Below, one piece after another: positions 51,789 through 57,479 of a DNA stretch of 64,000 nt (position 1 is the stretch's first letter; each line of letters starts with the position of its first letter). Location of the stretch: positions 15,500,001-15,564,000 of the forward strand of contig OZ024759.1 in NCBI GenBank assembly GCA_964016885.1, given 5' to 3'. Under the pieces are notes generated by a model. That model was not told where the DNA came from and did not search any database. It saw nothing but the letters and a program-made list of their open reading frames with translations. Made by a program: the position numbers and the translations under genes. This DNA is from Eledone cirrhosa. Lineage: Eukaryota.

Positions 51789-52100
51789 CATATATATACA
51801 TATATATATATATATACATATATATACATATATATATATATATACATATATATACATTTATATATATATATACACATTTATATATATGTATATATATATA
51901 TATATATACATATATATACATATATATATATACATATATATACATTTATATATATATATACATTTATATATATGTATATATATATATATATATACATATA
52001 TATACATTTATATATATATACATTTATATATATATACATTTATATATATGTATATATATATATATATATACATATATATACATTTATATATATATACATT

Positions 52101-52133
<33 letters not shown>

Positions 52134-52235
52134 ATATATATGTATACATTTATGTATATATACATTTATATATATGTATATATATATGTATATATATATA
52201 TATATATACATATATATACATTTATATATATATAC

Positions 52236-52278
<43 letters not shown>

Positions 52279-52302
52279 TATACATTTATATATATATACA
52301 TT

Positions 52303-52342
<40 letters not shown>

Positions 52343-52366
52343 TATACATTTATATATATATACATT

Positions 52367-52397
<31 letters not shown>

Positions 52398-52476
52398 GTA
52401 TACATTTATGTATATATACATTTATATATATATGTACATATATATATATATATACATTTATATATATATGTACATT

Positions 52477-52534
<58 letters not shown>

Positions 52535-52614
52535 TATGTATACATATATATACATATATATGTATACATTTATGTATATATACATTTATATATGCATATA
52601 TATATACATTTATT

Positions 52615-52682
<68 letters not shown>

Positions 52683-52747
52683 CATTTATGTATATATACA
52701 TTTATGTATATATACATTTATGTATATATACATTTATATATATATAC

Positions 52748-52786
<39 letters not shown>

Positions 52787-52908
52787 CATTTATGTACATT
52801 TATGTATATATACATTTATATATATATACATTTATATATATACATTTATATATATATATATATATACATTTATATATATATATATACATATATATATGTA
52901 TGTATGTA

Positions 52909-52939
<31 letters not shown>

Positions 52940-52944
52940 GTATG

Positions 52945-52990
<46 letters not shown>

Positions 52991-53509
52991 CATATATATA
53001 TATATATATTCATATATATATATATATTCATATATATATATATTCATATATATATTCATATATATATATATATTCATATATATATTCATATATATATATA
53101 TATACATATATATTCATATATGTATATATATATATACATATATACATATATATACATATACACATATATACATATACATATATATTCATATATGTATATA
53201 TATATATACATATACATTCATATATATATATATATACATATATATTCATATATATATATATACATATATACATATATATACATATACACAGATATACATA
53301 TACATATATATTCATATATGTATATATATATATATATACATATATATTCATATATGTATATATATATATATACATATATATTCATATATATATATATATA
53401 TATACATATATACATATATATACATATACATATATATATATATACATATATACATATATATACATATACACATATATACATATATACATATATACATATA
53501 CATATATAC

Positions 53510-53557
<48 letters not shown>

Positions 53558-53566
53558 GTATACATT

Positions 53567-53598
<32 letters not shown>

Positions 53599-53601
53599 TA
53601 C

Positions 53602-53634
<33 letters not shown>

Positions 53635-53658
53635 TATTTATATATATATGTATACATT

Positions 53659-53707
<49 letters not shown>

Positions 53708-53914
53708 GTAGTATTAGTTATACTATTTATGGTTATGTAAACACAAAACCTTAAGCAGTTGTAAGTATTTTACACACACCCTAAATAGTGGTAGGCAGTA
53801 ATGTATTACTACCTTATTACCAGTAAGTTAAGTAGCTCAATGTAAAAACATCAGATGATTTACAGAGCAGTTATATGAAATATAAGAATCAAAGAACTGT
53901 TCAAAACATTATTG

Positions 53915-53961
53915 TGCTTACAGCTGTTTCCTCCAAACCGAGGTTTGGATTCTTCGGAGCA
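53915..53961 (-). ncRNA. Hammerhead motif (family C), mirror copy
   Basis: Reverse complement of 54137-54183. Confidence 0.65.
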
Positions 53962-54136
53962 ATTTATTAATGCATGGACAGTTATATGACCTCCTTTTCA
54001 GCCGAGAGACATACCAATACATATTCAAACATTGATACATATTCAAACATATTCAATGTGTATCAATGTTTGAATATGTATTGGTATGTCTCTCGGCTGA
54101 AAAGGAGGTCATATAACTGTCCATGCATTAATAAAT

Positions 54137-54183
54137 TGCTCCGAAGAATCCAAACCTCGGTTTGGAGGAAACAGCTGTAAGCA
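54137..54183 (+). ncRNA. Type I hammerhead motif with palindromic stem III and U4C core variant (family C)
   Basis: UGCU-CCGAAGA-A UCCAAAC CUCG GUUUGGA G-GAAACAGCUGUA-AGCA. Confidence 0.65.
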
Positions 54184-54237
54184 CAATAATGTTTTGAACA
54201 GTTCTTTGATTCTTATATTTCATATATATATGTATAC

Positions 54238-54282
<45 letters not shown>

Positions 54283-54304
54283 TACATATATATGTATACA
54301 TTTA

Positions 54305-54369
<65 letters not shown>

Positions 54370-54437
54370 GTATACATTTATATATATATGTATATATATA
54401 TGTTTACGTTTATATATATATATGTATATATACATAT

Positions 54438-54657
54438 ATGGTGGCTGCCAACTCGTTTTCGAGTACGGCCACTACTTTAATCCATGTAGAAGAACCCCTA
54501 CCGATGCGCTGAACAAGTGAGACTTTTTAGTCAAGCCAGCGACTTGAAAACTCTAGAGCAAACACTACACTTGTGACAATTATTGACACATAGTGCTGGG
54601 CCCATGGTACCATGTGATGACAAATGCAGAGAGATCTCCAGATATAAAGCACTGCCT
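54438..54657 (-). mobile_element. Partial copy of the 31603-32211 repeat
   Basis: TGGTGGCTGCCAACTCGTTTTCGAGTACGGCC…GCACTGCC. Confidence 0.9.
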
Positions 54658-54701
54658 ATATGTATATATATGTATATATGTATTTATATATAAATGTATA
54701 C

Positions 54702-54732
<31 letters not shown>

Positions 54733-54853
54733 CATATATATACATATATATATATATATACATATATATACATTTATATATATATACATTTATATATATG
54801 TATATATATATATATATATATACATATATATACATTTATATATATATACATTT

Positions 54854-54885
<32 letters not shown>

Positions 54886-55050
54886 ATATATATGTATACA
54901 TTTATGTATATATACATTTATATATATATATACATTTATATATATGTATATATATATATATATATACATATATATACATTTATATATATATACATTTATA
55001 TATATATATATATATATATACATATATATACATTTATATATATATACATT

Positions 55051-55089
<39 letters not shown>

Positions 55090-55206
55090 ATATATATGTA
55101 TACATTTATGTATATATACATTTATATATATATGTACATATATATATATATATATATATATACATTTATATATATATGTACATATATATATATATATATA
55201 TATATA

Positions 55207-55401
55207 ACGAAGGAAATGTGGTAAGGAACCAGGTGGACCATAACGCACCAAAGTACTCAATACTTGAGGTAGTAGAGTGGGTAATAGGAACCAGTAAGAC
55301 CCCGACAGCTGAGCTCAAGCCGTTTCGACGGCTAATTCTGGACTATCCAGAATTAGCCGTCGAAACGGCTTGAGCTCAGCTGTCGGGGTCTTACTGGTTC
55401 C
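55207..55401 (-). mobile_element. Family B fold-back element
   Basis: Perfect ~60 bp arms centred at ~55345 plus tail; absent from the paralogous TA run near 52500. Confidence 0.9.
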
Positions 55402-55433
<32 letters not shown>

Positions 55434-55508
55434 TATGTATACATATATATACATATATATGTATACATTTATGTATATATACATTTATATATGCATATAT
55501 ATATATAC

Positions 55509-55541
<33 letters not shown>

Positions 55542-55606
55542 CATTTATGTATATATACATTTATGTATATATACATTTATGTATATATACATTTATATAT
55601 ATATAC

Positions 55607-55645
<39 letters not shown>

Positions 55646-55817
55646 CATTTATGTATATATACATTTATGTATATATACATTTATATATATATACATTTAT
55701 ATATATATACATTTATATATATATATATATATACATTTATATATATATATATATATACATATATATATGTATGTATGTATATATATATATATATATACAC
55801 ACATATATATATGTATG

Positions 55818-55876
<59 letters not shown>

Positions 55877-56212
55877 TCATATATATATATATGTTCATAT
55901 ATATATTCATATATATATATATGTTCATATATATATTCATATATATATATATATTCATATATATATATATTCATATATATATTCATATATATATATATAT
56001 TCATATATATATATATATACATATATATTCATATATGTATATATATATATACATATATACATATATATACATATACACATATATACATATACATATATAT
56101 TCATATATGTATATATATATATACATATATATTCATATATATATACATATACATATATATTCATATATATATATATATACATATATACATATATACATAT
56201 ACATATATATTC

Positions 56213-56243
<31 letters not shown>

Positions 56244-56609
56244 TATTCATATATATATATATATACATATATACATATATATTCATATATATATATATAT
56301 ACATATATACATATATATACATATATACATATACATATATATTCATATATGTATATATATATATATACATATATATTCATATATGTATATATATATATAT
56401 ACATATATATTCATATATGTATATATATATATATACATATATATTCACATATATATATATATATATACATATATATTCATATATGTATATATATATATAT
56501 ACATATATATTCATATATATATATATATATATACATATATATACATATACACATATATACATATATACATATACATATATACATATATACATATACATAT
56601 ATATATATG

Positions 56610-56642
<33 letters not shown>

Positions 56643-56681
56643 GTATACATTTATATATATATATATATGTATATATACATT

Positions 56682-56732
<51 letters not shown>

Positions 56733-56738
56733 GTATAC

Positions 56739-56783
<45 letters not shown>

Positions 56784-56851
56784 TACATATATATATATGT
56801 ATATATATATACATATTTATATATATATGTATACATTTATATATATATATG

Positions 56852-56897
<46 letters not shown>

Positions 56898-56937
56898 CAT
56901 ATTTATATATATATGTATACATTTATATATATATATG

Positions 56938-56968
<31 letters not shown>

Positions 56969-56974
56969 GTATAC

Positions 56975-57019
<45 letters not shown>

Positions 57020-57039
57020 TACATATATATGTATACATT

Positions 57040-57116
<77 letters not shown>

Positions 57117-57186
57117 GTATACATTTATATATATATGTATATATATATGTTTACGTTTATATATATATATGTATATATACATATAT

Positions 57187-57403
57187 GGTGACTGCCAACT
57201 CGTTTTCGAGTACGGCCACTACTTTAATCCATGTAGAAGAACCCCTACCGATGCGCTGAACAAGTGAGACTTTTTAGTCAAGCCAGCGACTTGAAAACTC
57301 TAGAGCAAACACTACACTTGTGACAATTATTGACACATAGTGCTGGGCCCATGGTACCATGTGATGACAAATGCAGAGAGATCTCCAGATATAAAGCACT
57401 GCC
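57187..57403 (-). mobile_element. Duplicate of 54438-54657
   Basis: Near-identical, including flanking microsatellite interruptions. Confidence 0.9.
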
Positions 57404-57448
57404 TATATGTATATATATGTATATATGTATTTATATATAAATGTATAC

Positions 57449-57479
<31 letters not shown>

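Follow-up and report, generated by a model that had tools for sequence, protein, structure and literature searches.

A compound TA-microsatellite unit present twice in an assembled Eledone cirrhosa sequence, with private inserts that are likely 5'-truncated Penelope-like elements

Introduction

Penelope-like elements (PLEs) leave insertions in which an inverted 5'-truncated copy is accompanied by a tail, and those called Naiads target (TA)n (PMC8557442). Inverted pseudo long terminal repeats (pLTRs), target duplications of 8-10 bp and self-priming palindromes have been described for PLEs (PMC3846280), and their minimal hammerheads have a helix II of 7-8 bp, a helix I of 4-5 bp and a palindromic helix III (PMC4209133). 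AT-rich cleavage and internal initiation have been proposed as the source of the tail (PMC11167929), and integration of the elements, with their inverted ends and tail, is still called unresolved (PMC8557442, PMC11167929). Octopus vulgaris is reported to have recently active Penelope-like families (31 families, 336 insertions; PMC13282606). Here we analyze 64,000 nt of AT-rich animal DNA from Eledone cirrhosa (assembly GCA_964016885.1, contig OZ024759.1, positions 15,500,001 to 15,564,000; hereafter the window, whose own numbering we use), in which a compound TA microsatellite unit of 2.75-2.9 kb is present twice, one copy carrying an insert that we call element C and the other an insert that we call element B.

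We suggest that the unit came to be present twice likely by unequal exchange where 45 bp are shared, and that B and C are likely 5'-truncated PLE copies. Taken as a whole, we give this account an even chance.

Results

Two collinear units from one ancestor

A preliminary description had placed a tandem duplication of ~2.8 kb at 51900..57450; its two units are confirmed, with the start moved to near 51800 (Table 1). We recoded each tract as a series of interruptions and run lengths (tokens) and aligned the two series, excluding C and B. Between 51995-54440 and 54761-57187, 139 interruption tokens align, with the same interruption in 130 and an equal run length as well in 99. The alignment score is 214.5, against a mean of 10.3 and a maximum of 16.5 in 30 shuffles and 3.0-25.5 when 11 further TA tracts in the window are used; the two microsatellite blocks, whose order had been said to recur, are thus collinear. 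When the inserts are removed, 2114 bases of the units can be aligned; 23 are mismatched, and of 29 indels 28 are even in length, the pattern that slippage gives. Exact blocks meet at the junction (54716-54786 equals 51800-51870, and 54445-54760 equals 57192-57507), and junction-like matches of 45-49 nt between the flanking tracts occur at six places. The two units derive from one ancestral unit.

The units also share a repeat, R1, reported earlier as 220 bp and found to be 217 bp in both. Its copies have a single difference (54444 G, 57191 A; 95% interval of divergence 0.01-2.5%), and exact identity extends beyond R1 for 85 nt leftward and 103 nt rightward. The data comprised three contig sets of one sample and three runs of restriction-site-associated DNA (RAD) sequencing, and four of the six were mapped on 54392-54668. 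The family is very high-copy (2106 contigs; ~20000 RAD reads per run, with four runs mapped) and continues in the reads beyond 54657, whereas R1 in the window is truncated there; five letters present in both window copies (54490 A, 54520 A, 54533 A, 54624 A and 54652 C) are absent from nearly all family reads. Since these rare letters and the truncation are common to both copies, R1 was inserted once and then copied with the unit. We therefore reject two independent R1 insertions, the copies being one base apart and both carrying the rare letters.

Table 1. Coordinates of the doubled unit, its inserts and related features of the window.
Feature	Position	Strand	Length	Basis or remark
Unit 1 of the tandem: compound TA microsatellite with empty B site, element C and R1 copy 1	51800..54715		2916 bp	token alignment and exact blocks
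Unit 2 of the tandem, with element B, empty C site and R1 copy 2	54716..57462		2747 bp	token alignment and exact blocks
Junction, low-complexity homology	54716..54760		45 nt	exact blocks; identical to 51800-51844 and 57463-57507
Empty B site, plain TA run	52484..52528		45 nt	unit 1
Direct repeat around C, left copy	53698..53710	plus	13 bp	exact
Element C, likely 5'-truncated PLE	53711..54220	minus (probable)		strand judged from the motif in the inner arm
Type I hammerhead-like motif in C	53919..53957	minus		descriptor search, predicted; mirrored at 54141-54179 (plus)
Direct repeat around C, right copy	54222..54234	plus	13 bp	exact; first 5 nt common to C's arm
R1 copy 1	54441..54657			truncated; belongs to a high-copy repeat with longer members at 31604-32207 and 60108-60575
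Element B, likely 5'-truncated PLE	55207..55401	minus (probable)
Local block duplication, period 86	56787..56968			left-adjacent to empty C site, unit 2 only; 96 nt exact from 56787
Empty C site	56952..56971			unit 2
R1 copy 2	57188..57404			one substitution from copy 1
Family E (tail and fold-back, adjoining TA runs)	17139-17352, 19909-20066, 31033-31222, 40776-40900, 61326-61510			arm-only: 30941-31005
Family F (fold-back insert without tail)	61848-62134, 59837-60006
LINE reverse-transcriptase frames (RVT_1), 5'-truncated	14443-15762, 23906-25867	minus		ending in TA tracts

Filled and empty sites

The empty and filled sites proposed earlier are indeed reciprocal for B and C. Elements C and B keep their former coordinates. 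The duplicated sequence said to flank C is an exact direct repeat of 13 bp lying in low-complexity DNA, and because 5 of the 13 bp are also part of C's inverted arm, the target duplication is 8-13 bp. Where unit 1 has C, unit 2 reads C(AT)8GTATACATTT (56952-56978), where the 13-bp repeat occurs once and nothing of C remains. The plain TA run noted near 52500 in copy 1 is matched in unit 2 by 25 nt of TA, element B and another 26 nt, so that B stands within a pure TA run, with a net gain of at most 6 nt relative to the empty site. These filled/empty comparisons support the boundaries given for both elements and their insertion into TA tracts. The empty sites are not pristine: the period-86 block adjoins that of C, and 10 nt to the left of the B site are unlike between the copies. 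Both period-86 sub-blocks have common run lengths that are unlike those of unit 1, and the copies have therefore diverged for some time, a difference not due to read noise.

Fold-back architecture and a hammerhead-like motif

Two features overlooked in the preliminary description, fold-back arms and a hammerhead-like motif, identify the class of the inserts. Element C consists of a 161-bp tail (53711-53871), an inner arm (53872-54039), a 19-nt loop and an inverted outer arm (54059-54226) whose last 6 nt extend into the flank; B has a 77-bp tail (55207-55283), an inner arm (55284-55342), a 3-nt loop and an outer arm (55346-55404). The arms are perfect in both, with 0/168 mismatches in C and 0/59 in B, and the outer arms each end in 3-6 nt common to the flank. 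An inverted 5'-truncated copy thus abuts the direct copy, and the tail is missing from the inverted copy, as in PLEs; inverted repeats at both termini, the trait of miniature inverted-repeat transposable elements (MITEs) and other elements with terminal inverted repeats, are not what we see, the tails being unpaired.

The predicted motif of C, a type I hammerhead such as PLE pLTRs contain, combines a CCGAAGA core (a U4C variant), an 8-bp stem II, GAAA, a short palindromic stem III, a GUA site and a 4-bp stem I, which fits the published minimal PLE dimensions (PMC4209133). U4C is a natural core variant of lower activity (PMC3088659). None of 3000 dinucleotide shuffles of C contains such a motif under our self-made descriptor, in which U4C was permitted after the motif had been seen in C.

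Three other pieces of the window are related to B: two of them (43347-43549, 61550-61741) share its tail end and turn point, and the third, at 17017-17077, comprises an arm only. Comparing the two arms within each copy gives 0, 2 and 4 differences in 53 sites, against 3-8 between copies, and both arms of a copy carry the same copy-specific letters; the outer arm was therefore likely copied from the inner at insertion, or conversion kept the two alike. That the hairpins are sequencing fold-back artefacts is unlikely, with a turn point common to three B copies and copy-specific letters in their arms. Pieces of the B and E families lie side by side twice (17017-17352 and 61326-61741), and in the first of these one B arm is followed by ~60 nt of different sequence, which may be the upstream part of the element itself.

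Sister families and their turn points

A stricter type I descriptor gives six matches in the 64 kb, all of them within fold-back inserts, namely both arms of C and family E, and a looser setting adds family F. Family E has a full type I hammerhead-like motif with a CTGATGA core and a GUA site, and always turns or is truncated at the 5' edge of the motif: turn points at 17274-17285, 20041-20042, 31165-31169 and ~61380-61391 adjoin cores that start at 17273, 20035, 31159 and ~61392 (this last core is altered and was identified by eye). Four of five E copies turn within ~12 nt of the core's 5' edge, and the fifth stops ~6 nt before its core at 40777. All three B hairpin copies turn where stem II would be. 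The motif of family F (61955-61901, minus) has a long stem II, and a ~65-nt spacer precedes the inverted arm, which resumes at stem I.

In Rfam, one E copy has a weak Hammerhead_3 match (E 0.52). Four hammerhead candidates, when folded, had z-scores of -0.2 to -1.5, which are weak and lend no support, nor is a common tail motif of B, C and E supported (145, 19 and 210 of 500 shuffles). DNA patterns derived from B had no matches in metagenome and viral contigs, and those derived from E had none in metagenome contigs. A tiny insert in a TA tract at 58085-58137, with a ~28-nt tail and a hairpin with 10-bp arms, has the layout of B and C.

Setting of the locus

TA microsatellites total ~19.7 kb of the window. 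The best identity of the longer LINE (long interspersed nuclear element) frame, among at least 120 matches listed, is 60% to an Argonauta hians protein, the single one of the listed matches to carry an organism name; a cephalopod host is likely on this showing. The SINE-like (short interspersed nuclear element-like) repeats of the window presumably resemble octopus repeats. Among the 150 of 994 Rfam matches listed for the window, all were microRNA families under gathering scores, which we read as chance hairpins. Open frames rich in Pro, His and Thr adjoin the TA tract at 50173-51047 (minus) and may be cryptic simple sequence; we claim no host gene there, because the low-complexity frame 50436-50978 has no Pfam match and no homologue among longer proteins.

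Several other repeats were seen. A near-perfect palindrome of 224 bp (28271-28494; 98% self-inverse) has a (TG)(TA)(CA) microsatellite at its centre. A MITE-like element at 44077-44662 has inverted repeats of ~200 bp (98%), a 22-bp tandem within the right arm and an ISXO2-like transposase fragment (PF12762, E 4.9e-6) at 44250-44459; further MITE-like inverted-repeat pairs lie at 9765-9904/10025-10164 (98.6%), 30064-30128/30338-30402 (93.8%) and 18648-18698/18803-18853 (92.2%). Dispersed repeats include a 140-bp element in TA runs (488-626 and 28567-28706, 95.7%) and a second family at 26763-27112 and 42919-43236 (77-88%).

Discussion

Origin of the doubling

Three histories yield the same sequence: the unit was duplicated within one haplotype and the two inserts arrived later, a C-bearing and a B-bearing allele exchanged unequally, or an assembler joined those two alleles. 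Insertion times cannot be read from the reciprocal pattern of filled and empty sites, since allelic crossover leaves an identical picture. Of the earlier proposal of recent insertion, a young age fits the perfect arms, but insertion after the duplication does not follow from the pattern. We lean slightly towards a real duplication by either of the first two histories. It is favored by the lack of an N gap (no N among the 64,000 letters of the window), by a junction that is base-perfect to both parents, and by block duplication also inside the tract, at period 86. Several observations weigh the other way. No read spans the junction: mapping left out the microsatellite 54392-54441, reads of the R1 family were dominant, and the difference at 54444 was not listed. 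The divergence of the R1 copies (1/217) and the reciprocal indels resemble two alleles, and the junction, being low-complexity with its 45-49 nt equivalents at six places, is usable by an assembler or gap-filler too.

An assembly artefact, with two haplotypes of one 2.8 kb segment joined in tandem via the 45-bp microsatellite overlap and with B and C as heterozygous PLE-like insertions, is a serious contender, at somewhat less than an even chance; the preliminary description had already offered tandem assembly of two haplotypes as its alternative. Besides the allele-like divergence and the many equivalent matches at the junction, the large reciprocal indels would suit it, as these probably hinder haplotype merging. 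The equal run lengths in 99 of 139 tokens suggest accurate reads, however, and accurate reads are rarely joined on 45 bp; the missing gap and the base-perfect junction also speak against a join. The locus resembles published heterotype false duplications in its adjacent near-identical copies with allele-like differences, and differs in having no gap between them, where false duplications are most often split by one; a filled gap would leave no trace, and wrong gap filling sometimes joins false duplications (PMC9516828).

If the duplication is real, a misaligned exchange between the TA tracts to the left and right of the unit would have produced it. Were the exchange between homologues, B and C would already have been allelic differences; were it within one haplotype, each would have been inserted later. 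For the inserts themselves, a PLE endonuclease may have nicked a TA run, with reverse transcription beginning at the element's tail and halting at a family-specific site. The cDNA would then have folded back and copied itself into the inverted arm (snap-back), and the new end would have annealed to the target via 3-6 nt of TA microhomology.

Identity of the inserts

We conclude that B and C are likely 5'-truncated PLE remnants on the strength of their arms, their tails and the motif of C. Membership is inferred rather than proven, because no PLE protein-coding frame or autonomous parent was found among the window frames and contigs searched; both inserts are too short to contain an open reading frame (ORF) for a reverse transcriptase (RT) that is telomerase-like, with a GIY-YIG endonuclease. 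Against membership stand the lack of a GIY-YIG or RT frame tied to B or C among 50 of the 198 window frames scanned, the absence of a second copy of C from the window, and the failure of Rfam to find a hammerhead in C. Of a hammerhead core, B retains just the 3' half (GAAAC, stem III, GUC), which 43 of 3000 shuffles reach and which is present in two of three B relatives and missed in one. Both tails also exceed the published 30-40 bp (PMC8557442).

A bolder reading, which we regard as doubtful, is that this genome has several young, short PLE-derived families in which the element's own hammerhead determines where the copy folds back: ribozyme folding would make the reverse transcriptase turn round at a programmed point and so give fixed-length hairpin elements moving as units, and the locus would be a real inter-allelic crossover keeping the filled and empty sites of B and C side by side. 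The turn points of E and B suggest such a link; C, unlike them, turns 83 nt from its core. A tight link between turn point and hammerhead may be new: we found no statement of it in the literature searched on PLE hammerheads and inversions, a search outside which most subscription papers lay. Fixed palindromes at pLTR 5' ends are already published (PMC3846280).

B and C are unlikely to be fold-back DNA elements (MITE- or Helentron-like) or snap-back insertions made by repair. They lack a protein-coding frame, and members of the B family turn round at a fixed point; Tc1/mariner-type elements, too, use TA targets. But the inverted repeat is asymmetric rather than terminal, with a long unpaired tail at one end, hammerhead-like motifs recur in C and in sister families E and F, and B occurs as a dispersed family whose tail end is fixed, rather than as a single repair patch. 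Very improbable is an ancestral unit with both B and C that lost one of them from each copy after duplication, by hairpin-aided deletion between the TA runs on either side: palindromes that are long and perfect tend to be deleted, and the empty sites are not pristine (the period-86 duplication at that of C, the 10-nt difference at that of B), but two clean losses would be required, and the empty C site has one copy of the 13-bp repeat and nothing left of C.

Significance and comparison with described elements

The locus as a whole is probably ordinary animal repeat turnover, and microsatellites are already known to duplicate in tandem, as PLEs are to form fold-backs. Its value lies in the paired sites, which give exact ends and the target duplication for two PLE-like families unlike the published octopus Naiad ends with which we compared them. 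With ~ten such inserts per 64 kb, this genome could test PLE integration at scale, and arm-versus-arm divergence could date insertions, as pairs of long terminal repeats do. Should the doubling be an artefact, it would call for caution with TA tracts in assemblies of this kind. The Octopus vulgaris repeat library of PMC13282606 may already contain B or C.

The closest described systems are the endonuclease-bearing (EN+) PLEs Pen2a, Pen2 and Pen3a of Adineta vaga, with an inverted pLTR and a tail. B and C share with them a shorter inverted 5' copy, an unpaired 3' tail, a palindromic junction read as self-priming, an AT-rich target and, in C, a minimal type I hammerhead (PMC3846280, PMC4209133), and the 8-13 bp repeat of C may correspond to their target duplication of 8-10 bp; they differ in having no ORF, in tails of 77 and 161 bp rather than 30-40 bp, in the U4C core of C and in the 3' half-core of B. 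With Naiads, including Naiad_Obim and Naiad_Ovul, they share the (TA)n target, strong 5' truncation and an inverted 5' copy, and the supplement records 'HHR_half_core' for Naiad_Ovul, as in B (PMC8557442). Naiads have no canonical hammerheads and, in cephalopods, are said to have long been inactive; C, in contrast, combines perfect arms with a full motif that has one core change. No match to published cephalopod consensus 3' ends emerged: two B-arm motifs and two B/E tail motifs had none in the supplement, where line breaks can conceal matches, and the 3' ends of Naiad_Obim, Ovul and Omin, compared by eye, are unlike B or C (PMC8557442). Animal non-LTR retrozymes are likewise short non-coding repeats that bear hammerheads and derive from PLE pLTRs (bioRxiv 10.64898/2026.07.22.740005); they consist by definition of head-to-tail tandem units, whereas B and C are head-to-head fold-backs.

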